Below, one piece after another: positions 11,710 through 52,329 of a DNA stretch of 64,000 bases. The position numbers and the translations under genes are program-made. Each line of letters begins with the position of its first letter. The first letter of the stretch is position 1. The DNA is from a virus (taxonomy: Duplodnaviria; Heunggongvirae; Uroviricota; Caudoviricetes): positions 111,836 to 175,835 of IMG/VR virus record IMGVR_UViG_3300033076_000838. One strand, 5' to 3'. The notes beneath the pieces were generated by a model. The model did no database searches. It saw only the letters and a list, made by a program, of their open reading frames with translations, and was not told where the DNA came from.

Positions 11710-12677
11710 GTAGGGAATAGTAATCAATAAGACAATGATAAGGATAAACTCAGTCTAAATGAGAATATCCTTTTTTTATGTCCATACGATAACACACCCA
11801 GTACACATACACACTATAACGCACTATATAGTCGAGATAGGGATAGTATAAAGAAAAGAGTACCAACCCTTCACTCCTGAGCTTGTAGTATCCAACTCCT
11901 GAGCTCACACAAGTAGAGAGAATCGAGAGTGCTGAGACCACTGAAAAACATAGGGATTTTAAGGGGTGCTGAGGGGGATTGAGTGCCCATGCGATGAAAT
12001 TATTCTACCCTATTGGAATTAACCTCCCATTTTCCATCTAAGCGGGTCATATGAGGATGTTTGAGTGGGCTATGAGACTAAAAGGTTTGAAAATGGTTAA
12101 TGTGCGATAATCGGATTTTGATGGATTTGGCCATTTTCTCCCACATTTCGACACTATAGCAATATAATTCATAAGCATATACGCATTCTTTGTCACAAAA
12201 ACAAATTTTTATATCCATATTTTCATATACTTTTATACACATATGTAACGGCTTTATTCACATTTGTAAATCGGACATAATGTCATAGTGCCAAAGTCCT
12301 CTCGATTGCAGTATTATCAAGGATATCCCCAATGCGTTGAATGAATTGCAAATCGTTTGAATACGACATATTGTCATAGTTTTTATTTGGAATTGTGAAT
12401 TTTTTTTCGTACCTTTATAGGGTGGGAGGGCGGTAAGCGTTTGACTGACGTTGCCCAGTTTAATTTCCTTCGTGACTAGACAGAAATATAAATGGTTGAT
12501 AATCAGTGCGTTCCCTCTCTTAGAAAAATACAAATCCATTTTGTTATATAATTTACATTATGTTAAGTAGAGTGGCCTGAGATTAGAATAGTCCAACGAA
12601 TCGCAACGCACTGGAAGTCAACGAGTTAGCTAAACGTCTGATAGTCAATCGAGAATTTTTAAAAAAAGTAGGGAAGG

Positions 12678-29574: not shown

Positions 29575-31047
29575 ATGAATCCATTATTATTGACCGATGG
29601 TTATAAGACAGGACATCACCAACAATACCCAAAAGGGACTACGTTGGTTTATTCCAATTTTACCCCACGTTCTAATAAGTACGCACCAAAAGGGTGTGAC
29701 AAAGTTGTATCATTTGGTCAACAAATGATTATGAAACAAATTCACGAGGCATTCCAAAATGAGTTTTTCTCCAAACCAAAAGATGAGGTTTGTGGTGAAA
29801 TGAAACGTGAGTTAAGTATGTATTTGGGAACTGATTATGATGTTACTCATTTTGAGAAACTACATGATTTAGGTTATTTACCAATTGCAGTAAAAGGTAT
29901 TGAGGAAGGTACAATAGTTCCTATCAAAGTACCAGTATTAACAATCTATAATACTCTACCCGAATTCTATTGGGTAACGAATTATTTAGAAACAATCATC
30001 TCAAATTTATTGTGGAAACCAATGACCTCTGCTACAATTGCACATACATATCGTAAGGTATTAACTGCTTGGTTAGCAATGACCGATATTGAAAAAGATT
30101 GGTTTATTGATTGGCAAGGACACGATTTCTCAATGAGAGGTATGGATTCAGTTGAGGCTACAATCGCAAGTGGTTTAGGTCACTTAACATCATTTAGTGG
30201 AACTGATAGTTTACCTGCAATTTATGGAGCAAGAAAGTACTATGGTGAGAAAGAATTTGTAGGCGGTTCAGTAAATGCAACCGAACATAGTGTAATGTGT
30301 GCGGGTAGTAAAGATGATGAGGTTGGTACATTCCGTAGATTATTAGAAACATATCCAACGGGTATTCTTTCAGTTGTATCTGATACATGGGATTTATGGA
30401 AAGTATGTACCAAACACGTTGTTACTTTGAAAGAAGAAATTTTAGCAAGAGATGGTAAGTTGGTAATCAGACCTGATAGTGGTGACCCTGTCGATATTCT
30501 TTGTGGAAATGGTAGAGAGGTTGATGCTTATAACGATGTTGATGGTAGAGAGCGTTGTGAAAGTAAAGGTGTTATTGAATTACTTTGGGATGTGTTTGGT
30601 GGAACTATCAACGGACAAGGTTACAAAGTATTAGATTCTCATATCGGAGCAATCTATGGTGATAGTATTACGATTGAAAGAGCTAATGAAATTTGTAAAA
30701 GATTAGAAGCAAAAGGTTTCGCATCTACAAACGTTGTATTAGGAATTGGTTCATTCACTTACCAATATAACACTCGTGATACGTTTGGTTTCGCAATGAA
30801 AGCTACTTACGTTGAGATTGATGGTGAAGGTAGAGAAATCTTCAAAGACCCAATTACCGATGATGGAACTAAAAAATCAGCAACAGGTCTATTAAAGGTG
30901 TTTAAAACAACTTTGGAAGGTGATATTGTATTACATGACCAAGTTAGTTGGGAAGAAGAGAGCGAAGGTATATTACAAACCATTTATGAAAATGGTGAGT
31001 TCTATAACGAAACAACTTTGACAGAAATTAAAAATAGATTAAAATAA
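29575..31047 (+). CDS. nadV: nicotinamide phosphoribosyltransferase (NAMPT / NadV-like)
   Basis: N-terminal LLLTDGYKTGHHQQYP is the NAMPT signature; 490 aa. Confidence 0.65.
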   Translation: MNPLLLTDGYKTGHHQQYPKGTTLVYSNFTPRSNKYAPKGCDKVVSFGQQMIMKQIHEAFQNEFFSKPKDEVCGEMKRELSMYLGTDYDVTHFEKLHDLGYLPIAVKGIEEGTIVPIKVPVLTIYNTLPEFYWVTNYLETIISNLLWKPMTSATIAHTYRKVLTAWLAMTDIEKDWFIDWQGHDFSMRGMDSVEATIASGLGHLTSFSGTDSLPAIYGARKYYGEKEFVGGSVNATEHSVMCAGSKDDEVGTFRRLLETYPTGILSVVSDTWDLWKVCTKHVVTLKEEILARDGKLVIRPDSGDPVDILCGNGREVDAYNDVDGRERCESKGVIELLWDVFGGTINGQGYKVLDSHIGAIYGDSITIERANEICKRLEAKGFASTNVVLGIGSFTYQYNTRDTFGFAMKATYVEIDGEGREIFKDPITDDGTKKSATGLLKVFKTTLEGDIVLHDQVSWEEESEGILQTIYENGEFYNETTLTEIKNRLK

Positions 31048-31067
31048 ACAATTAAAATTAAAACAAA

Positions 31068-32942
31068 ATGTTACAATCAATTTTAGGTTACGCATGGTTA
31101 CTAATCCCATTCTTAGCATTAGTATTTTATAAATTCGTATTAAGAGTTTTCTTCGGTATGGTTATTATACCAGAAAACAAAATCGGTTTGATTACCAAAA
31201 AGTTCGTTCTTTTTGGAACAAACAAATCTTTACCAGATGGTAAGATTATCGCATTGAATGGTGAACCGGGTTTCCAAGCTCATACTTTAGCTCCTGGTTT
31301 ATATTGGGGATATTGGATTTGGCAATATTCGATTGACCAAGCTAATTTGACCGTAATCGAAAAAGGTAGAATCGGTTTATTATCAGCAAAGGATGGTGCT
31401 CAATTACCAACCGGTGCAATCTTAGCTCGTCATATTGAGTGTGATAATTTCCAAGATACAAGAGCGTTTTTATTAAATGGTGGACAGAGAGGTAAACAAG
31501 TAGGTTATTTGAATAACGGGGTTTATCGTATCAATCCATTCTTATTTGATGTGGCAACAGCAGATATTACAAATATTGAAGATGGACAAGTTGGTATTAT
31601 CACAGCCTTAGATGGTACTCCATTAGATGCAGGAAATATCGCAGGTACTGTCGTTGAAGGACATAATAACTTTCAGGACTTTGATAAGTTTTTAGCAAAT
31701 GGTGGTCAGAGAGGTTTACAAACACAAGTAGTTCAAGCAGGTAACTATTCATTTAACCCGTGGGCAGTACAAGTTGAGAAAGTACCGATGACACAAATTC
31801 CAATTGGTCACGTAGGAGTAGTAATCTCATATGTGGGTAAAGAAGGTAAAGATACATCAGGTGCATCTTTCAAACATGGTAATATTGTAGGTAAAGGTGA
31901 GAAGGGTGTTTGTGGTTCTCCATTAGACCCAGGTAAGTATGCAATTAATCCTTATACACATAAGATTGAAGTTGTACCAACTACTAACCTTGTATTGAAT
32001 TGGGCAAACGCACGTTCTGAATCTCATAATTTAGATAAAGGATTAAGTACAATCACAGTCCGTTCAAAAGATGGTTTCCCATTCAATTTGGATGTATCAC
32101 AAATCATTCACATTCCCGCAACCGAAGCACCAAAAGTAATTGCACGTTTCGGTTCAATGCAGAATTTAGTTTCACAAGTATTAGAACCAACGATTGGTAA
32201 CTATTTCAGAAACTCTGCACAAGATAGTGATGTAATCGCGTTCTTATCAACTCGTCAAAGTAGACAAGATGCAGCGAAGGTAGCAATCTCAAAAGTATTG
32301 GATGAGTATAACGTATATGCAGTAGATACTTTGATTGGTGATATTAACCCACCAGAATCATTAATGAAAACATTAACTGATAGAAAGATTGCACAAGAAG
32401 AAGAGGTTACATTTGAAACACAACGTAAAGCACAAGACCAACGTAAAACATTGGAATCAGCGAAGGCGTTAGCGGATATGCAAGGTCAAATGGTAGCAGC
32501 ACAACAATCGGTAGAAATTTCCGAAAGAGAAGCACAGGCATCGGTTAAGAAATCAGAGGGTGAGGCTAAAGCAATTGAATTAAAAGCAACTGCACAAGCA
32601 AACGCGAAGAAAGTAACTGCACAAGCAGATGCTGCACAAATTGAATTGACCGGTAAAGCGGAAGCAACAAAGATTGAAGCCATTGGTAAATCAACCGCGG
32701 AGGCATATCAATTACAAGTTAAAGCAATGGGTTCTGACAACTTCTCTAAATTTAAGATTACCGAAGAGATTGGTAAGAACGGAATTAAGATTATTCCAGA
32801 GGTTCTTATCGGTGGTAATGGTAATGGTTCTCCAATTGATGGTTTATTAGGTATGGAGTTGTTAAAACAAATTACCGACAAAAGAGATTTGCAATCAATT
32901 GTAGATACAACAACTGAAACTACAACTAAAAAAGGTAAGTAA
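31068..32942 (+). CDS. SPFH / band-7 (flotillin-like) membrane protein
   Basis: N-terminal TM segments, an SPFH core, and a long Ala/Gln/Glu/Lys-rich coiled-coil C-terminus as in flotillin YqiK. Confidence 0.55.
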   Translation: MLQSILGYAWLLIPFLALVFYKFVLRVFFGMVIIPENKIGLITKKFVLFGTNKSLPDGKIIALNGEPGFQAHTLAPGLYWGYWIWQYSIDQANLTVIEKGRIGLLSAKDGAQLPTGAILARHIECDNFQDTRAFLLNGGQRGKQVGYLNNGVYRINPFLFDVATADITNIEDGQVGIITALDGTPLDAGNIAGTVVEGHNNFQDFDKFLANGGQRGLQTQVVQAGNYSFNPWAVQVEKVPMTQIPIGHVGVVISYVGKEGKDTSGASFKHGNIVGKGEKGVCGSPLDPGKYAINPYTHKIEVVPTTNLVLNWANARSESHNLDKGLSTITVRSKDGFPFNLDVSQIIHIPATEAPKVIARFGSMQNLVSQVLEPTIGNYFRNSAQDSDVIAFLSTRQSRQDAAKVAISKVLDEYNVYAVDTLIGDINPPESLMKTLTDRKIAQEEEVTFETQRKAQDQRKTLESAKALADMQGQMVAAQQSVEISEREAQASVKKSEGEAKAIELKATAQANAKKVTAQADAAQIELTGKAEATKIEAIGKSTAEAYQLQVKAMGSDNFSKFKITEEIGKNGIKIIPEVLIGGNGNGSPIDGLLGMELLKQITDKRDLQSIVDTTTETTTKKGK

Positions 32943-32945
32943 TAT

Positions 32946-33422
32946 ATGGCATTAGTATTAAAGCCAAGTATGGAAGGGGTGGATAGATTTCCAACCCCTA
33001 CCATATTTTTAGCAGGTTCAATCGAAATGGGAGCCGCTGAGAATTGGCAAGAACGAATAGAAAGAGAATTCAAAGATGAAGAGGTTACATTCTTCAATCC
33101 ACGTAGAGATGATTGGGATAGTAGTTGGTCACATACGAGTGAACAATTCAACACACAAGTAAATTGGGAATTAAATGCATTAGATGATTCGGATATTATC
33201 TTTATGTATTTTTCACCCGAAACTAAATCACCAATTTCTTTATTAGAATTAGGATTATATGCAGACCATCACAAAATGATTGTAGTTTGTCCTGATGGAT
33301 TTTGGAGAAAGGGTAATGTAAGTGTAGTTTGTACACGATATTCAATTCCGATGTTTAACACAATTCAGGAAGGTATATTTGCTTTACGAACAGCCGTTAG
33401 AAAAAATCAAACATTATATTAG
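32946..33422 (+). CDS. nucleoside 2-deoxyribosyltransferase-like protein
   Basis: IFLAGSIE ... SLLELGLY blocks are typical of the NDT-like fold. Confidence 0.45.
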   Translation: MALVLKPSMEGVDRFPTPTIFLAGSIEMGAAENWQERIEREFKDEEVTFFNPRRDDWDSSWSHTSEQFNTQVNWELNALDDSDIIFMYFSPETKSPISLLELGLYADHHKMIVVCPDGFWRKGNVSVVCTRYSIPMFNTIQEGIFALRTAVRKNQTLY

Positions 33423-33424
33423 GA

Positions 33425-33452
33425 TATTTGAAAAATTTTTCGTATATTTGTA
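33425..33452 (+). promoter_or_regulatory. phage promoter (short form)
   Basis: ATATTTGAAAAATTTTTCGTATATTTGTAAT. Confidence 0.4.
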
Positions 33453-33467
33453 ATATAAACGATAAAA

Positions 33468-34598
33468 ATGGAAAATTTAAATTCAATTTGCTACATTGCA
33501 ACAATTAATGAGATTAACCCAATTGAGGGTGCGGATAACATCGAACTAGCAGTAGTTGGTGGGTGGAACTGCATCACCAAAAAGGGAGAACAAAAGATAG
33601 GTGATTTGGTAATGATTGCTACAACCGATGCAATTATCCCATTTGAGTTATCCGAAAAGATGGGCGTTACTAACTATCTACGAAAAGGTGGTAGAGTTAG
33701 GACAGTAAAATTAAGAGGCGTTTATTCAGAATGTTTAATCATCCCAATCCAACATATTCCATTTATGGAAAACTATTATGAAGGTAAGGATATGATGAAA
33801 GTGATGGGTATTTACAAATACGAACCACCTGTTAAAATGGTTCAACTTGCAGGTGGTAGAAAGATTCGTTATCAAGACAATCCTAATTTCCATGTGTACT
33901 ATAAGTTCCCTAACTTAAAGAATGTGCCGGGAATGTTTACCGAAGAAGACACGGTCGAAATCACTCGTAAGATTCACGGAACTAATGCCCGTTATGGTAT
34001 TGTTAAGAAAAACAAATTATCATTATGGGATAAAATTAGAAAGTTTATTGGATTAGCAGATAAGTGGATTGAATACGAATTCGTAGTTGGTTCGCATAAT
34101 GTGGAGAAGGGTTCAGATTCTAACGGATTCTATGATACTAATGTTTGGTATGAAATCGAAAAGAAATACAACATCAAACAAAAGTTATGGGATTATGTTA
34201 AGGATGATGCAATGGAACCTGAAATCGGTGATGGTATTACCTTATATGGTGAGATTTACGGAGCGGGAATCCAAAAGGGATATGATTATGGGTTGAAAGA
34301 GATTGAGTTCGTAGGATTCGATGTAAAGGAGGAAGGTGAGTATTTAGACCCAATCAATTCAAAGTTGTTAATCGAACATATTTTGGAATTACCATATGTG
34401 GAGCAATTATATTATGGTAGATGGTCACAAGAAGTGCAAGATAAGTATGTATTCAATAACTACATCAAAGGTACGAAAGTACCAGAAGAGGGTATTGTAA
34501 TCAAACATCAATCTAAGGGAAGAGAAAAAATAGCAAAGGTAATCAACCCTGATTATTTAATCTTCGCTGAAAAACATAACGTAGGTGATTCACACTAA
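33468..34598 (+). CDS. ATP-dependent RNA ligase (Rnl2 family) with an N-terminal tRNA-binding OB domain
   Basis: Motif I TRKIHGTNA (T4 Rnl2 has EKIHGTN), motif IV EGIVIKH, and a KIAKV motif V. The N-terminal roughly 130 aa resemble the Myf/CsaA tRNA-binding fold (EGADNIELAVV...IGDLVMIA). Confidence 0.65.
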   Translation: MENLNSICYIATINEINPIEGADNIELAVVGGWNCITKKGEQKIGDLVMIATTDAIIPFELSEKMGVTNYLRKGGRVRTVKLRGVYSECLIIPIQHIPFMENYYEGKDMMKVMGIYKYEPPVKMVQLAGGRKIRYQDNPNFHVYYKFPNLKNVPGMFTEEDTVEITRKIHGTNARYGIVKKNKLSLWDKIRKFIGLADKWIEYEFVVGSHNVEKGSDSNGFYDTNVWYEIEKKYNIKQKLWDYVKDDAMEPEIGDGITLYGEIYGAGIQKGYDYGLKEIEFVGFDVKEEGEYLDPINSKLLIEHILELPYVEQLYYGRWSQEVQDKYVFNNYIKGTKVPEEGIVIKHQSKGREKIAKVINPDYLIFAEKHNVGDSH

Positions 34599-43936: not shown

Positions 43937-45106
43937 ATGGATAGTAAAGTTGATTTAACAAAATACGTTTGTAGAGCACCATTTGAAGATTTTATGGTTT
44001 TCAATAATTCTACTTGGTTTTGTTGTCCAGATTGGATGGAAATACCTTTTGAAGAATGGTCGATGATTACTGAAAATGAAACTGATAATTTAAAATCAGT
44101 TTGGTTTAATGATATTAATCAACGAGTAAGACAAGGTGTTTTAGATGGAACATATAAATATTGTTCTAAAACAAAGTGTCCGTATTTATCAAAATTAATT
44201 AATACCGATGAAAAAACTTTATTAAAACAATTTGAATCGGATGCCGGTAAATCAGTTTATTTTGGATATTTTTATAAAAGAAATGAATTTTTTAAAAAAT
44301 ACAATTTAAGTGAAACTGATAAAGAGTGGAAATTATTTCCTCGTCTTATTTACTTTAATTTTGATTATGCATGTAATTTACGATGTCCATCATGTAGATT
44401 AGATACTATAACAAATCGTAGAGATAAAGTGATAGACGGTATTATTGATGATATAAATAATCAATTTAGTGAAGATGTTGAAGTAATACATATGACAGGA
44501 AGTGGTGACCCATTTTACTCAAACGCATTTAGAAACTTTATGCAAACATTTGATGTAAAAAAATATCCAAAATTAAAAGCTATTTATTTAGTTTCTAATG
44601 GAAATATGTGGACACAAGAAATGTGGGAATCGGTAAAAGCAATTCATCCATATGTGTATGAATATGAAATTTCAATCGATGCAGCAACACGTGATACATA
44701 TGAAAATAAAGTAAGATTAAATGGTCATTGGGATACTTTAATTAAAAATTTAAAATATCATTCTACATTAAAATTCATAAATAGAAATTTTTCTTTTGTA
44801 GTACAAGACCATAATGTAGGTGAGATAAACAAATTTGTAAAATTGATTCAAAGTATATATGATTATAATGAAACACCATATACTATTACTTTTAGAGCAA
44901 TACAAGATTGGAATCATCAAACAAAAGAATGGATAAAGGAACGTTCAGTGCAAGACCCGTCCCACCCATTACACAACGTATTATTAGAACAATTAAGAGA
45001 ATTAGGTAACAAAAAATATGTAATACATAACTTTTGGCATTTATTGACGGAAGAACAAAAAACGAATGAAATTTTCGATGAACCAAAAAGAACAAAATTA
45101 ATATAA
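43937..45106 (+). CDS. radical SAM domain protein
   Basis: CNLRCPSC, a CxxxCxxC cluster at about aa 147. Confidence 0.5.
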   Translation: MDSKVDLTKYVCRAPFEDFMVFNNSTWFCCPDWMEIPFEEWSMITENETDNLKSVWFNDINQRVRQGVLDGTYKYCSKTKCPYLSKLINTDEKTLLKQFESDAGKSVYFGYFYKRNEFFKKYNLSETDKEWKLFPRLIYFNFDYACNLRCPSCRLDTITNRRDKVIDGIIDDINNQFSEDVEVIHMTGSGDPFYSNAFRNFMQTFDVKKYPKLKAIYLVSNGNMWTQEMWESVKAIHPYVYEYEISIDAATRDTYENKVRLNGHWDTLIKNLKYHSTLKFINRNFSFVVQDHNVGEINKFVKLIQSIYDYNETPYTITFRAIQDWNHQTKEWIKERSVQDPSHPLHNVLLEQLRELGNKKYVIHNFWHLLTEEQKTNEIFDEPKRTKLI

Positions 45107-45109
45107 ATT

Positions 45110-45310
45110 ATGACACTACAAGACATCAGCAGAAAATATAGAATTTCTGACAACTATTTAAGTTCAAAAGAAGATGCATTAATCGTTACTGCAGCATCTA
45201 TAAACGATTTGATTGAAGAATTACAACCAATCAACGGAACAACAAGTGTAACGGAAAAAATGCAACGATTAGTGGATTTTTTACAAGATGTAAAAAATTC
45301 TACATTTTAA
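45110..45310 (+). CDS. small hypothetical protein
   Basis: ORF track. Confidence 0.4.
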   Translation: MTLQDISRKYRISDNYLSSKEDALIVTAASINDLIEELQPINGTTSVTEKMQRLVDFLQDVKNSTF

Positions 45311-45346
45311 TTTGGAAAATTAAAAAACTTTTCGTATCTTTGTATA
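45310..45346 (+). promoter_or_regulatory. phage promoter (short form)
   Basis: ATTTGGAAAATTAAAAAACTTTTCGTATCTTTGTATAAA. Confidence 0.5.
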
Positions 45347-45367
45347 AATTAAATAAAATCATAAAAG

Positions 45368-45796
45368 ATGAACGTAAAACAAGCATTAAAGGTTAAAAAC
45401 AAATTGGTTACTGAAATGAAGGCTGCATATGGTATTCTTCAAAAGTATAACTCAATTGAAGAAGGTAATCCTCGTAGATATTCTATGATGAATACTTTGG
45501 AAAAAATCAAAACTCTACAAGCGGAGTTGGTGGATTTAAAAACAAAAATCCATAAAGCAAATCAACCAGTGTATGATAAAATCTTTGCATTGGCAGAATT
45601 AAAAGGAATGATTAAGGAGTTGAAAAAAGTTTCAACCGAAGAAGGTAAGGTTAATGAAAGATACGGAAGTGTTGTTTCAGTAAAAGAAGTAGAATTAAAT
45701 GTAACTGATATTGATGCTGCAATTGCAGTGTTAGAATCACAAATTGAGGGATTGCAAAATGAATTAGATATTCATAATGCAACAACTCAAATTTAA
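45368..45796 (+). CDS. coiled-coil protein
   Basis: ORF track. Confidence 0.45.
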   Translation: MNVKQALKVKNKLVTEMKAAYGILQKYNSIEEGNPRRYSMMNTLEKIKTLQAELVDLKTKIHKANQPVYDKIFALAELKGMIKELKKVSTEEGKVNERYGSVVSVKEVELNVTDIDAAIAVLESQIEGLQNELDIHNATTQI

Positions 45797-45979
45797 AAAT
45801 ATTGAGTGAGTGGGGTTTGAAAACTATTAATTAGTTTATTCTTACAATTCTACTATGATGCCAAAATAGCGGATGAACGAATAAGATAACGAATAATTTA
45901 CAAACCTCAAAAATATTAGGGTCTCTTGTCGGCACGTCAATACAATCAAACCTCGCTGAAACCCGAATAACCTTTTTGA

Positions 45980-46264
45980 TTGGATTCATTCTCCACAAAC
46001 TCAAACTTATTAACCACTAAAACAAAAATTATGAATTGGTTTATTACCTATTACGTTCTTTGTATTATTTATTGTTTCTATCAATTAAGCAAAAAATATA
46101 AAGCAAGAGGTGTAGATTATGGAACATCACCAGAGTTAGATTCGATAATGGTATTAGTTATGGCTGGAATATTAGCACCAGTAGATGTAACAATTACTTG
46201 GATTAAAATGGTGAAAGAAGCTGAAGAAGTTAAACGTGAAATTGAAAAAAGGAATATATATTAA
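45980..46264 (+). CDS. small membrane protein
   Basis: Two TM segments. Confidence 0.4.
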   Translation: MDSFSTNSNLLTTKTKIMNWFITYYVLCIIYCFYQLSKKYKARGVDYGTSPELDSIMVLVMAGILAPVDVTITWIKMVKEAEEVKREIEKRNIY

Positions 46265-46366: not shown

Positions 46367-46370
46367 AAGT

Positions 46371-46580
46371 ATGATGTTAGAGTTCAAAAAACCAATACCA
46401 GTAGTAGTAGAAGGTAACAAAGATGGATACGCAATCTACGTTACTGATAGTGGTATGTTTGAAAATGATATTTGGTGTGTAGTATTATGTGATGGTGGTA
46501 TAGTTAGACATTACAATTCATCTCAAATAAGGATTTTTCATAACGCAACATTTGACATCAAAAAAGATAATAAATTGTAG
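46371..46580 (+). CDS. small hypothetical protein
   Basis: ORF track. Confidence 0.4.
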   Translation: MMLEFKKPIPVVVEGNKDGYAIYVTDSGMFENDIWCVVLCDGGIVRHYNSSQIRIFHNATFDIKKDNKL

Positions 46581-46748
46581 TGTGTTGGAATTGATTGTGT
46601 AATAACAATCGTGGCAGACAAGCCCTCCTGTCTCGGGGGTGGTGAGAACGAAATAGGTTAGTAATATGGGGTAGACCACCATCCGGCCGGAGAAGTGTTA
46701 TTAACTGAATCGCATCGTGGAGTGTTCGAATCCTCCCACTACAGCAAA
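46576..46748 (+). ncRNA. tRNA-like element of abnormal length (about 173 nt): canonical T-loop plus an acceptor-like pairing TGTAGTG/CACTACA
   Basis: 3' end GGAGTGTTCGAATCCTCCCACTACAG pairs with TGTAGTG at 46576, but the D and anticodon arms are not canonical. Could be an intron-containing or degenerate tRNA. Confidence 0.25.
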
Positions 46749-46770
46749 AGTAAAAAGTTCTTTAACATAT

Positions 46771-47345: not shown

Positions 47346-47417
47346 CGCAGGGTAGAGCAGTGGTAGCTTGGTGGGCTCATAACCCATAGGTCGGAGGTTC
47401 GAATCCTTCCCCTGCAA
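47346..47417 (+). tRNA. initiator tRNA-fMet (CAT)
   Basis: C1-A72 mismatch; three consecutive G-C pairs closing the anticodon stem (GGG-CTCATAA-CCC). Confidence 0.75.
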
Positions 47418-47442
47418 CTAAATAAAAAAACTTTAAAAAAGA

Positions 47443-47479
47443 TTTGGAAATATGAAAACTATTTCGTATCTTTACAAAG
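47443..47479 (+). promoter_or_regulatory. phage promoter (short form), duplicate
   Basis: Identical to the 47277 copy. Confidence 0.5.
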
Positions 47480-47535
47480 TAAAAGAAACCAACCAAACAA
47501 CACAACTATTTTTTAACAATTTAAACAATTAGTAT

Positions 47536-47694
47536 ATGACAAAGTTTTGGAAGTGGTTCGAAAAGTATGGATTTTTAGTTTTAGGTATTAGTAACCTATT
47601 ATGTTTTAATCCTTACAATGCAGTAATTGGGTTAGTATTTATTACCTGGTTTATTGTAGACAAAAAAAATAATAAAAAAGATTTGGAAAATTAA
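47536..47694 (+). CDS. small TM protein (52 aa)
   Basis: MTKFWKWFEKYGFLVLGISNLLCFNPYNAVIGLVFITWFIV...; its 3' end overlaps the next promoter. Confidence 0.3.
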   Translation: MTKFWKWFEKYGFLVLGISNLLCFNPYNAVIGLVFITWFIVDKKNNKKDLEN

Positions 47695-47719
47695 AAAAGT
47701 TTTCGTATCTTTACAAAGT
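47682..47719 (+). promoter_or_regulatory. phage promoter (short form) preceding the ORF-free RNA region
   Basis: GATTTGGAAAATTAAAAAAGTTTTCGTATCTTTACAAAG. Confidence 0.5.
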
Positions 47720-47759
47720 AATCAAACGGATTACAAAAAACGTTCTTTAAAATTATTGA

Positions 47760-49195
47760 AAATATTGTACATAGTAGACTTGTTCTACATAGTACATACC
47801 CGCCGCATATGGTGGTTAAATAAACTTGGAAACAAGGATAAAGTGAATACAATGGTTATTGTGTTTGCGGTTTCATCTTCGGATGGAGCTTGAGTATGCA
47901 AGTGGAATATCATTAGACCTGATTAGTGAGGGTAACTCCGTAGTGAAATGGTTTGATGACTGGGCTCTAGTAGAAGTTCAGTTGAGGTAGGAATATCAAT
48001 AAGAATAATCCATAGAGTTATTGCAAGAAGTAAGGACTTAATCTCTCCTTATCATTGCGTGATTCAATATTAGAGGTTGCTTAAAACCGAAAGGTATGTT
48101 GATGTACAGGTGGTGCTGTTATTTACCTTACCTACATCTCACCAAAGAGTGGGTAATGAAGTAATCTTAAAGTATGACGTTAGAGATAACGTATCGAGTA
48201 GTATAGTATTCCGTTCTTCAAAATGGAACGGAGCTAGTGGTAATCCACTACTTGAATTCATCTACAACCAAAACTCAATTTGCTATTGGTGCAAACTATA
48301 AACAAATAAAGAGAAAGAGGTTACCAGTTGCAGACGAAAGGTGTGTACATAGTAGGGAGTTGTTCCCTGCCACAAATCCCCTCAAAGGAGATGTGATTCT
48401 TTCGAAAAGCTTCTAGCACTGCGAGGTGTTAATCGGGTCGGCGGATTCGAAGAGGTAGAGTACGAAGAGAGTAGTTTGTAACTTTATGAGTGGTAGGCAT
48501 TACTTACCCACATTGAATTGGTACTTCTCAAAAGGAAGTGGAAATTAAGGCAACCCATAACCCTTATAAAGCTGGTTCACAATATGGAGTATTCTCATCC
48601 TTATATTTTTACAATGGTTGTATATTGGTTCGATTCCAATAGTAAAAGCTTCGTAGTGGTTTACGCCAGATTGGTTCGATGTACCTTCGAATAACTGAAT
48701 ACCACTTAAAATAAAAAAGAAAAAAGGTATAATGGTATGGTTTTCCGTAGGGGATTTTCGCCTTAAAGAATCTCAATGATACGAATTTAATTGATGGTAA
48801 GTAACGGATGTAGCTAGTCCTTTGAAAGAACCACCCTACAAAATCTTTCTTTTTTAAACGAACTAATCCTTCGAGGCTTATATTAACCAGAGCATGACTT
48901 GGATGGAGTATTTTGAAGATGGATTAGTTTTTTTATTTAGCTAATAACAAAAAAACAAACAAACGTTACGAAAAAATAATTTTTAGATATTTATAACAAG
49001 ATGAAAAACTTAGCATTACATACAAACAACCAATTACCTACACAAAGACGTGAGTGGGCTGGGAATTGTATGTTTAGTACGATAGTCCTTCCGCAAGCAG
49101 AATTGAATTTTGGCAAGGTAGATTATATTAGTACTCCGTTAAGGGAAGCATCAGGTTGGTAATGATGTAAGATTTAAATAGAAAATATTTGAAGA
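47760..49195 (+). ncRNA. candidate large structured noncoding RNA (about 1.4 kb ORF-free, GC-richer region inside the tRNA array)
   Basis: Promoter at 47682 and terminator at 49197-49229. No ORF longer than 75 aa on either strand. UUCG and GNRA-type hairpins such as CATCTTCGGATG, and tRNA-like T-loop fragments such as ATTGGTTCGATTCCAAT at about 48617. Confidence 0.4.
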
Positions 49196-49196
49196 A

Positions 49197-49229
49197 CCCT
49201 TAACTGATAAAAAAGTTAAGGGTTTTTTC
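49197..49229 (+). terminator. intrinsic terminator
   Basis: CCCTTAAC-TGATAAAAAA-GTTAAGGG plus TTTTTT. Confidence 0.6.
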
Positions 49230-49235
49230 GTATAA

Positions 49236-49307
49236 GGGTTGGTAGCTCAGAGGCAGAGCAATGGTCTGTTAAACCATAGGTCGAGATTTCGAAATTCTCC
49301 CTTCCCT
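49236..49307 (+). tRNA. tRNA-Asn (GTT)-like; acceptor stem has U4-U69 and U5-U68 mismatches
   Basis: D arm GCTC/GAGC, anticodon loop CTGTTAA, T-loop TTCGAAA; acceptor GGGTTGG/CCTTCCC is imperfect. Confidence 0.5.
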
Positions 49308-49325
49308 CAATTAGTTCTTTGATAT

Positions 49326-49397
49326 GCGAATATCGTATAGTGGTTATTACTCCTTCCTTCCAAGTAGGAGACGTAGGTTCGATTCCTACTATTCGCT
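49326..49397 (+). tRNA. tRNA-Gly (TCC)
   Basis: Acceptor GCGAATA/TATTCGC; anticodon loop CTTCCAA. Confidence 0.65.
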
Positions 49398-49405
49398 CAA
49401 TAAAT

Positions 49406-49477
49406 TGCCCGATGGTGTAATGGTTAGCATACATCACTTTGACTGATGTAGTATAGGTTCGAATCCTATTCGGGCAT
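49406..49477 (+). tRNA. tRNA-Gln (TTG)
   Basis: U1-A72; anticodon stem CATCA/TGATG; loop CTTTGAC. Confidence 0.7.
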
Positions 49478-49483
49478 CAATTA

Positions 49484-49559
49484 GGAGATTAGCTCAGTTG
49501 GTTAGAGCATTTGGTTTACATCCAAAGGGTCATAGGTTCGAATCCTATATCTCCTACCA
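49484..49559 (+). tRNA. tRNA-Val (TAC), CCA encoded
   Basis: Acceptor GGAGATT/ATCTCCT; loop TTTACAT. Confidence 0.75.
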
Positions 49560-49566
49560 TTTAAAT

Positions 49567-49648
49567 GCCGACGTCGCATAGTGGCAATTGCAAGGGACTG
49601 TAAATCCCTCCTCTTCGGAGTTCGTAGGTTCGAGTCCTACCGGCGGCA
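49567..49648 (+). tRNA. tRNA-Tyr (GTA), type II
   Basis: Anticodon stem AGGGA/TCCCT, loop CTGTAAA, long variable arm. Confidence 0.7.
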
Positions 49649-49656
49649 CAACAAAT

Positions 49657-49729
49657 GGAGCTTTCGTATAGCTGGTGCGTACGTTGGACTGAAAATCCAA
49701 AGGACGAGGTTCGATTCCTCGAGGCTCCA
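49657..49729 (+). tRNA. tRNA-Phe (GAA)
   Basis: Acceptor GGAGCTT/AGGCTCC; loop CTGAAAA. Confidence 0.75.
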
Positions 49730-49735
49730 CATAAT

Positions 49736-49809
49736 GAATCCGTAGCTCAGTTGGTTAGAGCACCTCACTTTTAATGAGGGAGTCAATGGTTCGAGTCCAT
49801 TCGGGTTCA
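49736..49809 (+). tRNA. tRNA-Lys (TTT)
   Basis: Acceptor GAATCCG/CGGGTTC; loop CTTTTAA. Confidence 0.75.
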
Positions 49810-49814
49810 CATAT

Positions 49815-49890
49815 AGGGTAATAGAGGAGTCCGGTCTATCTCGCTTCGTTTGGGACGAAGAGCACGCAGGTTCGAATCCTGCTTACCCTA
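49815..49890 (+). tRNA. tRNA-Pro (TGG)
   Basis: Acceptor AGGGTAA/TTACCCT; anticodon stem CTTCG/CGAAG, loop TTTGGGA. Confidence 0.7.
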
Positions 49891-49896
49891 CAACAC

Positions 49897-49970
49897 TGGT
49901 AGTTAGCTCATTTGGTTAGAGCATCTCGCTGATACCGAGAAGGTGGCAGGTTCGAATCCCGCACTACCAA
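49897..49970 (+). tRNA. tRNA-Ile (GAT)
   Basis: Acceptor TGGTAGT/ACTACCA; loop CTGATAC. Confidence 0.7.
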
Positions 49971-49981
49971 CTTTGAAATAC

Positions 49982-50052
49982 ACGAGTATGGTGCAATGGT
50001 AGCATACGGCTCTCCAAAAGCTTTGATGTGGGTTCGAATCCTACTACTCGTG
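49982..50052 (+). tRNA. tRNA-Trp (CCA)
   Basis: Acceptor ACGAGTA/TACTCGT; loop CTCCAAA. Confidence 0.65.
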
Positions 50053-50115
50053 CTAAATGAATAAAACTATGAAACAATTATTTGACAAACATTAGGTAAC
50101 GAAACCTAATGTAAA

Positions 50116-50307
50116 ATGAAAGAAGAAAAAGTAAAAAAAATGAATGCAATCTACAACTATTGTATGATTTGCAACAAACGAAATGGTAGTTGGTACTATG
50201 ATTGTCACCCATCATCATTTGGAGCAAAAAGACATGGTAGTGGTAAGATTGTAAGAGTAAGAGAGTGTAAAAGTTGGAAACACAACCGAAAGACTCAATG
50301 GAAGTAA
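50116..50307 (+). CDS. small basic Cys-containing protein embedded in the tRNA array
   Basis: ORF track; CMICN...C...C. Confidence 0.35.
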   Translation: MKEEKVKKMNAIYNYCMICNKRNGSWYYDCHPSSFGAKRHGSGKIVRVRECKSWKHNRKTQWK

Positions 50308-50311
50308 AGAT

Positions 50312-50383
50312 AGTTCCGTAGTTTAACGGATAGAACAATTGGCTACGAACCAGTAAATGGGAGTTCGATTCTCTCCGGAACTA
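50312..50383 (+). tRNA. tRNA-Arg (ACG)
   Basis: Acceptor AGTTCCG/CGGAACT; anticodon stem ATTGG/CCAGT, loop CTACGAA. Confidence 0.7.
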
Positions 50384-50390
50384 CACAATT

Positions 50391-50463
50391 GTCAGGTTGG
50401 CCGAGATGGTTTAGGTGGTGCTCTGCAAAAGCATTTACGTTGGTTCGAATCCAACACTTGACT
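50391..50463 (+). tRNA. tRNA-Cys (GCA)
   Basis: Acceptor GTCAGGT/ACTTGAC; loop CTGCAAA; short D stem. Confidence 0.6.
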
Positions 50464-50468
50464 CAGAT

Positions 50469-50538
50469 TGCGTGACTTAGTGGAAAAGAGTTATCTCTCA
50501 TAAGGATGACCAATTGAGTTCGAACCTCAAACACGCAA
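50469..50538 (+). tRNA. tRNA with CAT anticodon (elongator Met or Ile2 type); D arm atypical
   Basis: T arm TTGAG-TTCGAAC-CTCAA; loop CTCATAA; acceptor TGCGTGA/ACACGCA. Confidence 0.45.
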
Positions 50539-50543
50539 CATAT

Positions 50544-50629
50544 AGAGAGTTACCCAAGTTGGTGAAGGGGCCTGTTTGCTAAACAGGTAGGATGTAAAAG
50601 TCGCAAGAGTTCGAGCCTCTTACTCTCTA
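50544..50629 (+). tRNA. tRNA-Ser (GCT), type II
   Basis: Acceptor AGAGAGT/ACTCTCT; loop TTGCTAA; long variable arm. Confidence 0.75.
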
Positions 50630-50649
50630 CGGAAAAAAATAATACTTAT

Positions 50650-50723
50650 GTCCGTATGGCGTAATTGGCAACCGCACTGGTCTTAGAAACCAGTTTGTGT
50701 AGGTTCGAATCCTACTATGGACA
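50650..50723 (+). tRNA. tRNA with TAG anticodon (reads CUA, Leu by the code) but with a short, type-I variable arm
   Basis: Acceptor GTCCGTA/TATGGAC; perfect anticodon stem CTGGT/ACCAG; loop CTTAGAA; 5-nt variable loop. Confidence 0.55.
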
Positions 50724-50748
50724 CAAAACTAAAAAAAAAGGTAATACT

Positions 50749-51207
50749 ATGGTTTTTAAAAAATTACAATCGAAAGAAGAAATCCAATTGGTTCAGTACA
50801 TTAAAGAGTATATGGAATTAAATACTGATGCTGAGATATTGATTGGTTGTGATTCACAAAACTCTCGTAGTAAAACTATTTACGCAATTGTAGTAGCATT
50901 ATATAGACCGGGTAAAGGTGGTCATGTTCTTTATAGAAAATGGAGTACTGAAAGAGAAAGAGTTCGTTCTATTAGATTATTACAAGAAGTTTGGTTTGCA
51001 ATTGAAACTGCAGAATACTTAAAAGAGAATGGTGTTAAAAAACCTAAGTGGATTGATGTGGATTTAAATCCAGACCCACGATACAAATCTAATGAGGTAT
51101 TCAGACAGGCAGTTGGTATGGTTGAAGGTATGGGATATTCAGTAAGGTATAAATCCTTAGGTCCTATTGCAACATATTGTGCTGACCATTTAGTAAAAAA
51201 TAATTAA
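50749..51207 (+). CDS. hypothetical protein, possibly an RNase H-like fold (weak)
   Basis: Start trimmed to the ATG after the tRNA (the ORF-track start lies inside the tRNA). ILIGCDSQNS...YAIVVALYRPGKGGHVL is weakly RNase H-like. Confidence 0.4.
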   Translation: MVFKKLQSKEEIQLVQYIKEYMELNTDAEILIGCDSQNSRSKTIYAIVVALYRPGKGGHVLYRKWSTERERVRSIRLLQEVWFAIETAEYLKENGVKKPKWIDVDLNPDPRYKSNEVFRQAVGMVEGMGYSVRYKSLGPIATYCADHLVKNN

Positions 51208-51214
51208 ACAAATG

Positions 51215-51252
51215 TTTGGATATATTAAAATAAATTCGTATATTTGTTAAAC
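51215..51252 (+). promoter_or_regulatory. phage promoter cassette
   Basis: TGTTTGGATATATTAAAATAAATTCGTATATTTGTTAAAC. Confidence 0.5.
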
Positions 51253-51659: not shown

Positions 51660-51962
51660 CAAGACATACATCAGCCACATTAATTCCTTCAACCATATTG
51701 AGAGGTTAGTGTATGTTTAGGTAAGAGAGAAGAAGTGGTTGGGACATCTCTTTTACCGATAATATTGTATCAAATGTGCAGTGAAAATTGATGTAGGCAT
51801 ACATTGATGAGGTGGGTTCGATTCCCGTTTAATAATTCTTAGGTCAAAAGCCGGAGGAAGAAGCCAAGTAATTGAGAACACATTATAGCCGGAGTGGGTG
51901 TGCACCTCGTCTAGAGACCCTAATAGTTCCTAATAGGTCGGTATGGAACTGATACATAATTT

Positions 51963-52035
51963 GCCTCCTTAGCTCAGTTGGTAGAGCATCTCATTTGTAA
52001 TGAGAATGTCACTGGTTCGAACCCGGTAGGAGGCT
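51963..52035 (+). tRNA. tRNA-Thr (TGT)
   Basis: Acceptor GCCTCCT/AGGAGGC; loop TTTGTAA. Confidence 0.75.
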
Positions 52036-52329
52036 CGAGTGGATTCATCAGTTGATGAAAACCAATCGGGGGTTGTCCCACTAGAATGGAAACATCCCCT
52101 GCAAATAATGGCTCTATAATTGTTGAGGTCGCACCAAAAGCAATGAGTGGGTGAATGATGATTGAATGTAGCAATCTCCTTAATACTAGGATTGGAGTGT
52201 AAAATTGTTCATACATTTAGTAAGTAGTTCATAAGATGGGTTCGATTCCCATTAGAGTCTCAATGATTACTGAAATTGAATGATACGAGTCCTCAAAGTT
52301 CGAAAAGAGTCAGGCAGTAATCGTTATTT

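Follow-up and report, generated by a model that had tools for sequence, protein, structure and literature searches.

The transfer RNA (tRNA) array of the Caudoviricetes virus IMGVR_UViG_3300033076_000838 (IMG/VR) contains an interval, at roughly 47.7 to 49.2 kb of the 64,000-nucleotide (nt) stretch analysed here (positions 111,836 to 175,835 of the record, hereafter the window), for which the question is what, if not protein, it encodes. The initial annotation, made from the letters alone, had read it as one promoter-to-terminator unit of about 1.4 kb and as a candidate giant structured non-coding RNA of the GOLLD or ROOL kind, or else a novel RNA class. We conclude, with a probability of roughly 0.93, that the core of the region is a GOLLD RNA gene (RF02032) of approximately 800 nt, located at 47802-48601 on the plus strand in the transfer-messenger RNA (tmRNA)/tRNA island of a huge phage related to LR756502.

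Identification of a full-length GOLLD RNA

The whole window was scanned with Rfam covariance models at gathering thresholds, and the interval 47400-49300 was also scanned with permissive filters (E <= 1); tRNA and tmRNA genes were called using ARAGORN and Rfam. The covariance-model search, which the initial annotation had proposed as a check, returned a match to RF02032 at 48194-48601 (+) with 261.5 bits (gathering score 150; E = 2.4e-73) that extends over the complete model (positions 1-416 of 416). GOLLD was the sole Rfam family other than tRNA and tmRNA across the window. The proposed structured RNA beside a tRNA cluster was therefore recovered as GOLLD, but its ROOL half found no match.

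RF02032 models only the conserved 3' half of GOLLD, and the 5' half was traced by comparison with other phages and with env-38, an 833-nt GOLLD RNA from a marine metagenome whose homo-14-mer nanocage was resolved by cryo-electron microscopy (PDB 9MEE; Kretsch et al. 2025, PMC12286853). Positions 6-816 of env-38 are colinear with 47802-48601 of the window, with 578 of 835 alignment columns identical (69%). The two domains are as follows:

47802-48193 (+): GOLLD 5' domain; 67% identity to env-38 residues ~6 to ~415/420; kept in LR756502, LR745206 and IMG/VR contigs; helices with compensatory changes.
48194-48601 (+): GOLLD 3' domain, the part modelled by RF02032; 72% identity to env-38, with a variable A-rich linker at approximately 48262-48315.

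Since the alignment with env-38 is colinear over the full length, the window GOLLD is, judged by sequence, a full-length molecule of the env-38 type, both of whose domains are orthologous to those of env-38. The suggestion of a novel RNA class was abandoned, because the main RNA has a structurally solved orthologue along its entire length.

The uncultured huge phages LR756502 (642 kb) and LR745206 (635 kb) align with the window from 47802 onward, and the Rfam model also called GOLLD in both (275 and 287 bits, respectively). The 5'-domain 16-mer GAGGGTAACTCCGTAG (47928) was present in 53 IMG/VR viral contigs, most of which align over the entire RNA. Related viral and metagenome contigs compared here are labelled L plus a number. 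The 16-mer probes also matched unrelated coding DNA (L057-L066, L067-L089 and nearly all of the 63 matches in prokaryotic genome contigs), and these matches were removed using nhmmer. Three IMG/VR contigs (L009, L031 and L034) contain the exact GAGGGTAACTCCGTAG 16-mer and CAAAAG-type motifs and otherwise align poorly to the window 5' domain; they may carry a different variant of the GOLLD 5' domain or another RNA.

The individual signals that had first drawn attention to the region were all located at the stated positions. The quoted hairpin CATCTTCGGATG lies at 47874-47885, and CGAAAG occurs at 48088-48093 and 48335-48340. A GC content above that of the flanks, as first described, holds against coding DNA (0.36-0.42 over 47750-48650 versus 0.24-0.30 over 44000-46000) but not against the tRNA array (0.40-0.49). 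Taken together, the testable attributes of GOLLD were all found at this locus, namely the model score, a pseudoknotted 3' domain, a structured 5' domain, a size of approximately 800 nt, and a phage setting beside tRNAs.

Conserved structure and selection

A first 5'-domain alignment of 42 sequences was spoiled by 8 non-homologous or divergent sequences, and was replaced by a set of 28 clean full-length sequences, all distinct, consisting of 27 phage or metagenome sequences and env-38. Alignment with MAFFT and folding with RNAalifold yielded 206 base pairs in approximately 36 helices spanning 47803-48601, with compensatory double changes in 137 of the pairs. Most GOLLD helices were 95-100% canonical, and the 3'-domain helices outside the pseudoknot were 84-100% canonical across the 28 sequences. 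The long-range pseudoknot helix (48326-48335 paired with 48474-48483) comprised 10 base pairs (bp), 8 of which covaried. The covariation that the initial annotation had expected of a genuine structured RNA is thus strong across related phages, and no conserved protein frame covers the RNA.

The closest relative found was the metagenome contig L112, which showed 92.3% identity over 47735-49400 versus 77-79% in the coding DNA on both flanks. This higher identity than in the flanking coding DNA indicates that purifying selection acts on the RNA locus.

Comparison with known RNA systems

The env-38 RNA self-assembles without protein into a cage of D7 symmetry, in which each half-shell is capped by the 5' domain, and it has been described as lying downstream of a Met-tRNA (PMC12286853). 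The window GOLLD resembles it in the colinear domains, in size (approximately 800 versus 833 nt), in the common 3'-end motif GUAUUCUCA, in the A-rich linker that separates the halves of the 3' region, and in the upstream tRNA-Met. GAAA, GC-containing and GGCR loops occur at the same places in both, and the inter-subunit contact loops of env-38 appear, on an approximate mapping, to be retained as GAAA at 48089-48092, UGCGA at 48420-48424 (with the internal GC), and GGCG at 48440-48443. In contrast, 31% of the sequence differs, and the helix that GGGGAAACCCC caps in env-38 has 14-17 nt fewer in the window. The window GOLLD also has an extra upstream leader hairpin and, unlike env-38, a defined genomic location, in a huge phage that carries 25 tRNAs and a tmRNA.

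The RF02032 family was described from Lactobacillales phages and prophages, mycobacterial tRNA arrays and lake metagenomes (Weinberg et al. 2009). The window copy agrees with the family in matching the full model, including the pseudoknot, and in being phage-borne and adjacent to tRNAs, whereas it differs in its inferred Bacteroidota host, in its carriage by a relative of 630-640-kb phages, and in its env-38-type 5' domain, one of several variants. GOLLD expression is expected to increase in the lytic cycle, and the window copy has a predicted phage promoter upstream. ROOL is also found in phage DNA near tRNA islands and also yields an RNA-only cage, but it has a different fold and forms an 8-mer.

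Predicted transcription signals and small ORFs

Four putative promoter, leader or terminator elements accompany the GOLLD gene:

47682-47714 (+): predicted phage promoter of the Bacteroidota type; -33 element TTTG at 47682-47685, -7-like element TATCTTTA at 47707-47714, predicted start at approximately 47720.
47766-47797 (+): leader hairpin, TGTAC..GTAGA-loop-TCTAC..GTACA, just 5' of GOLLD P1; -8.6 kcal/mol, z = -2.3.
48860-48934 (+): terminator-like hairpin of approximately 70 nt with a U7 tract; CTAATCC (48863-48869) paired with GGATTAG (48921-48927), U7 at 48928-48934.
49197-49228 (+): strong intrinsic terminator; CCCTTAAC/GTTAAGGG at 49197-49222, then T6; 15-bp stem with an 8-bp G+C-rich core.

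In the promoter, TTTG is followed by a 17-nt spacer and TCGTATCTTTA (47703-47713). The motif TTTG-N16-18-TCGTAnnTTT occurs in eight copies in the window, at 12386, 16725, 35106, 45311, 47278, 47443, 47682 and 51215, in the form TTTGG-N16-TTCGTATCTTT(G/A). All eight lie on the plus strand, compared with a mean of 0.11 and a maximum of 1 in first-order Markov simulations. The promoter that the initial annotation had placed at 47682-47719 is one of these copies, and three of them fall within 450 nt, ahead of tRNA-Met, of a small open reading frame (ORF) and of the GOLLD region, respectively. Relatives have the exact TATCTTTG at the -7 position of the same site upstream of GOLLD. Bacteroides promoters follow the pattern -33 TTTG / -7 TAnnTTTG. 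The consensus, from which we infer promoter function, fits this Bacteroidota -33/-7 type and is not sigma-70-like. A generic sigma-70 scan flagged no promoter at 47682-47714; it used a promoter model of the wrong type for the presumed host and a terminator loop limit of 8 nt, and was replaced by motif counts and folding.

The leader hairpin lies upstream of the env-38 start and outside the env-38 construct. Its apical stem is re-paired among relatives, as judged by eye (GTAGA/TCTAC, GTATT/AATAC and GTA.CC/GG.TAC).

The U7 hairpin, whose apical part (GAGGC..AACCAGAGCATGAC..) is conserved, has a folding energy of -17.3 kcal/mol (z = -1.8), and its basal stem covaries in 12 relatives, each with a T run after it. 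L027, in which the trailing element is missing, nevertheless has this hairpin. The GOLLD transcript most likely terminates at the hairpin, which may be leaky. In L019 (4916-5220) and at the same position in L033, a further tRNA-like fragment and a small lipoprotein-like ORF (MKKVLAIFAVASLVVLASCGG...) stand in place of the hairpin. These other elements mark the stretch from GOLLD to the small ORF downstream as an insertion hotspot.

The strong terminator, which the initial annotation had recognised at 49197-49229, folds at -19.3 kcal/mol (z = -6.1), a value that 0 of 200 shuffles reached, and it is kept with compensatory changes in L018, L006 and L027. It was missed by the terminator scan because its loop exceeds the 8-nt limit.

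Between the U7 hairpin and this terminator lies one further feature:

49001-49162 (+): small conserved ORF of 53 amino acids (MKNLALHTNNQLPTQRREWAGNCMFS...), ATG start, frame open in relatives.

The frame is open in nine relatives at 40-53 amino acids, and the other two frames contain 3-7 stops. Synonymous/non-synonymous codon pairs numbered 139/384 in frame versus 73/441 and 32/481 out of frame, and the relatives were recovered by tblastn with E values down to 8e-18. Searches of Pfam and PHROG gave no match. This is probably a real small gene. The description of the interval as lacking any ORF longer than 75 amino acids is accurate, but 'ORF-free' was an overstatement in view of these 53 conserved codons.

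A second small ORF (47536-47694; 52 codons, ATG start, hydrophobic product) is located between tRNA-Met and the GOLLD promoter and has its own promoter motif (47443). It had no counterpart among the related loci compared, no Pfam match, and a very weak PHROG match (E = 0.15), and it may be lineage-specific or spurious.

Conserved elements downstream of GOLLD

Two further elements occupy the space between the GOLLD 3' end and the U7 hairpin:

48606-48649 (+): tRNA-like minihelix without anticodon arm, starting 4 nt past the GOLLD 3' end.
48650-48853 (+): GOLLD-trailing conserved element of approximately 205 nt, without an Rfam family.

The minihelix consists of a 7-bp acceptor stem (TTTTTAC at 48606-48612 paired with GTAAAAG at 48642-48648), a D-loop remnant AATGGTT, a perfect T arm (ATTGG-TTCGATT-CCAAT, 48624-48640), and a discriminator C. 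The T arm coincides with the T-loop motif ATTGGTTCGATTCCAAT noticed in the initial annotation, at 48624-48640. Neither ARAGORN nor the Rfam tRNA model (RF00005) called a tRNA at 48606-48649. The 7 bp of the acceptor stem are kept through four different sequences, those of the relatives being TTATCTA/TAGATAG, TCATCTA/TAGATGA and TTATCAT/ATGATAG. At the same site, full-size but aberrant tRNAs occur in L001, in L019, where the anticodon loop has 8 nt, and in L075, where the T arm has decayed; real tRNAs occur in L049 and L023. The minihelix looks like a recently truncated phage tRNA gene. Elements with a tRNA-like shape and no anticodon arm include the tRNA-like domain of tmRNA and, at the 3' end of long non-coding RNAs, RNase P signals of the mascRNA type, and an acceptor stem joined to a T arm is the minimal shape recognised by RNase P. 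Like the mascRNA-type elements, the minihelix places a predicted acceptor stem and T arm right after a long structured RNA.

Against 4227 Rfam covariance models, the best matches of the trailing element were at chance level (E = 0.12-9), far under gathering scores. Motif probes recovered 23 distinct copies in viral and metagenome contigs, with nhmmer E values of 1e-41 to 1e-62 for full-length copies. All 22 copies with enough upstream sequence follow the GOLLD 3' end and the tRNA-like element within 160 nt. The curated structure includes the helices AGTGG (48655-48659)/CCACT (48702-48706) and GTAGGG (48747-48752)/CCCTAC (48834-48839), and the hairpins TTCGA-UGUACCU-TCGAA (48675-48691) and GGAT-GUAGCUA-GTCC (48806-48820). 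Over its six helices, 98.9% of the cells were canonical and seven pairs had changed on both sides, a result reached by 0 of 500 shuffles and compared with 0-2 in slid controls. The compensatory changes are spread over four helices; because the sequence is highly conserved, this covariation is only suggestive. A coding frame was ruled out for the element by one- and two-base indels. Among candidate helices, the RNAalifold pairings of GTAGTGG with CCACCCTAC and of CCTTAA with TTGATGG were rejected, being broken by variable positions where AGTGG/CCACT and CTCAA/TTGAG covary instead, and a GGTTTT/AGAACC helix was dropped since it is broken in L075 and L033.

As a tentative proposal, the minihelix, the 205-nt RNA and the ornate terminator hairpin might together be an accessory RNA module not described before, transcribed along with GOLLD in a single clade of huge phages. 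The minihelix would then serve as a 'punctuation mark' for RNase P, fixing where GOLLD ends on its 3' side, and the trailing RNA would be a second functional non-coding RNA, conceivably a partner or cargo of the cage.

The alternative that bears most directly on this proposal is that 48602-48940 is non-functional debris of decayed tRNA genes followed by an ordinary terminator, with GOLLD alone functional. The site does present a graded series, from the real tRNAs of L049 through the odd ones of L001 and L019 and the decayed T arm of L075 to the window element without an anticodon arm, and other orphan T-arm motifs exist within the island. A single-sequence fold of 48600-48945 is moreover no better than shuffles (z = +0.27). 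Debris would hardly be expected, however, to maintain a highly conserved 205-nt element in 23 copies with compensatory changes in four helices, or an acceptor stem of 7 bp across four sequences, and 48602-48940 is conserved as much as GOLLD itself and more than the flanking genes. We consider the debris explanation unlikely, without dismissing it.

A far less probable arrangement is that the whole of 47.7-49.2 kb forms one giant RNA of approximately 1.4-1.5 kb, either a new class or a much-extended GOLLD, with the downstream 600 nt in the same fold. A single primary transcript would be possible, given that the promoter motif is absent between 47712 and 51215; the trailing element always comes after GOLLD, and L112 is 92% identical throughout the interval. 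Yet GOLLD ends at 48601 both in the Rfam model and by alignment with env-38, whose 833-nt transcript assembles alone, and RNAalifold found no helices joining GOLLD to the downstream part. In the contigs L017 and L027 the whole of 48602-48860 is missing, real tRNAs take its place in L049 and L023, and the conserved small ORF and the internal U7 hairpin split the interval. The single unit of about 1.4 kb originally envisaged accordingly reduces to a structured RNA of approximately 800 nt, the remainder of the composite ~1.55-kb interval consisting of separate elements.

Finally, a degraded, frameshifted or intron-split protein gene, or another known large RNA (ROOL, HEARO, OLE, RNase P, or a group I/II intron), would agree with the shortage of long ORFs and is otherwise contradicted throughout, in that only GOLLD and tRNA families reach E <= 1 in 47400-49300, none of the listed RNAs matched at gathering thresholds window-wide, the longest ORF on either strand from promoter to terminator is 74 amino acids with a TTG start (48077-48301), and substitutions pair across helices without codon periodicity.

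Genomic setting and predicted host

GOLLD is flanked by tRNA-Met (47346-47418) and tRNA-Asn (49236-49308), and the island around it comprises 25 tRNAs and a tmRNA. The order tmRNA, tRNA-Met, GOLLD, tRNA-Asn, tRNA-Gly onward is kept in L018, L019, L033, L027 and L006. Proteins encoded in the window match those of LR756502; the SPFH/Band-7 protein, the largest ORF product tested, showed 64% identity to this phage. Phages with genomes >634 kb have been predicted to replicate in Bacteroidetes (Al-Shayeb et al. 2020). The carrier is thus a relative of the 630-640-kb phages, a clade predicted to infect Bacteroidota, and the promoter type agrees with this prediction. When prokaryotic genomes were scanned, with each species represented by one genome, this GOLLD subtype was not found in any prophage. 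Among prokaryotic genome contigs, only a single 5.9-kb contig binned as Saccharibacteria carries the subtype, and no prophage-based host call was therefore made.

Several other features of the neighbourhood were observed. The phage tmRNA (46771-47116) encodes the short tag GVNNYALAA, and the tags of L018, L019, L027 and L033 are much longer (...MTFEDAMAFVGADYAVAA). Orphan T-arm-like motifs (GGTTCGAaTCC with a flanking stem) occur outside called tRNAs at 46724, 51816 and 52240, in gaps (46367-46770, 51661-51962 and 52037-52329) that are well conserved and have a GC content of 0.37-0.45. The segment 52037-52104 is 100% identical to L018 over 68 nt, and 51766-52036 is 90% identical. Apart from tRNA-Thr, these gaps gave no Rfam match, and they may be more degenerate tRNAs or structured RNAs without a known family. 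An RNase H-like ORF (50665-51207) is embedded in the tRNA array. Further upstream, 29575-34598 encodes auxiliary genes typical of huge phages, namely a NAMPT/NAPRTase-like enzyme, the SPFH/Band-7 protein, and an RNA ligase with a PHA02142 OB domain.

Proposed transcription, processing and assembly

According to the model that we favour, host RNA polymerase would start at the phage promoter (47682-47714), near 47720, and the transcript would span GOLLD, the minihelix and the 205-nt trailing element up to the U7 hairpin (48860-48934), with some possible read-through into the small ORF as far as the terminator at 49197-49228. By cutting on the 5' side of the minihelix (48605/48606), RNase P would define the 3' end of GOLLD, in the manner of transcripts punctuated by tRNAs; since the minihelix is not universal, we give this step only even odds. 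The released RNA would fold into separate 5' and 3' domains and would probably, by homology with env-38, self-assemble, with no need of protein, into a 14-mer cage of D7 symmetry that encloses the A-rich linker.

Several observations weigh against this picture or against the GOLLD assignment itself. The covariation counts (137 of 206 pairs) come from related sequences and from a structure derived from the same MAFFT/RNAalifold alignment, so that their significance is somewhat overstated; the signal is nonetheless large, and agrees with the published secondary structure. Because the env-38 sequence was taken from a machine-read PDF (Supplementary Table 4 of PMC12286853) that gave 816 rather than 833 nt, 17 nt short, and because the supplementary alignment is limited to the 3' end, the mapping of contacts at residue level is approximate. 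The 31% divergence from env-38 could also change the stoichiometry of the cage. The minihelix is absent from L017 and L027, and its T arm has been lost in L075-type relatives, which weakens the processing model. The strong terminator ends 7 nt before tRNA-Asn (49236), an arrangement found also in L018, L006 and L027, and the promoter motif is absent from 47712 to 51215, and hence from the space between this terminator and the 13 tRNAs at 49236-50724. This combination is hard to fit into a simple operon. Possibly, these tRNAs are transcribed by read-through, or the hairpin at 49197-49228 acts in RNA processing or stability. The predicted ends of the transcript, its processing by RNase P and the efficiency of the terminators are all deduced from sequence patterns.

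Implications for GOLLD and huge phages

The GOLLD class itself is already known, and this copy brings no new principle; what it adds is the carrier phage and the trailing module. A close full-length relative of env-38 can now be placed in a readable genomic setting, that of a huge phage with a Bacteroidota-type promoter and a fixed slot after the tmRNA and tRNA-Met and before a run of tRNAs, and structure-function work can draw on dozens of natural variants of both domains. A concrete new lead on the processing or the partners of the GOLLD transcript comes from the conserved trailing module. In the literature on the family, the GOLLD cage, with 14 subunits and a size larger than the ribosome, is without an established function. 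Its constant company of tRNAs and tmRNA suggests a role in the take-over or buffering of translation during infection, for example by holding tRNAs or ribosomal material, and the fixed slot, together with conservation above that of the flanking genes, supports the idea that the cage would serve the phage in taking over translation.

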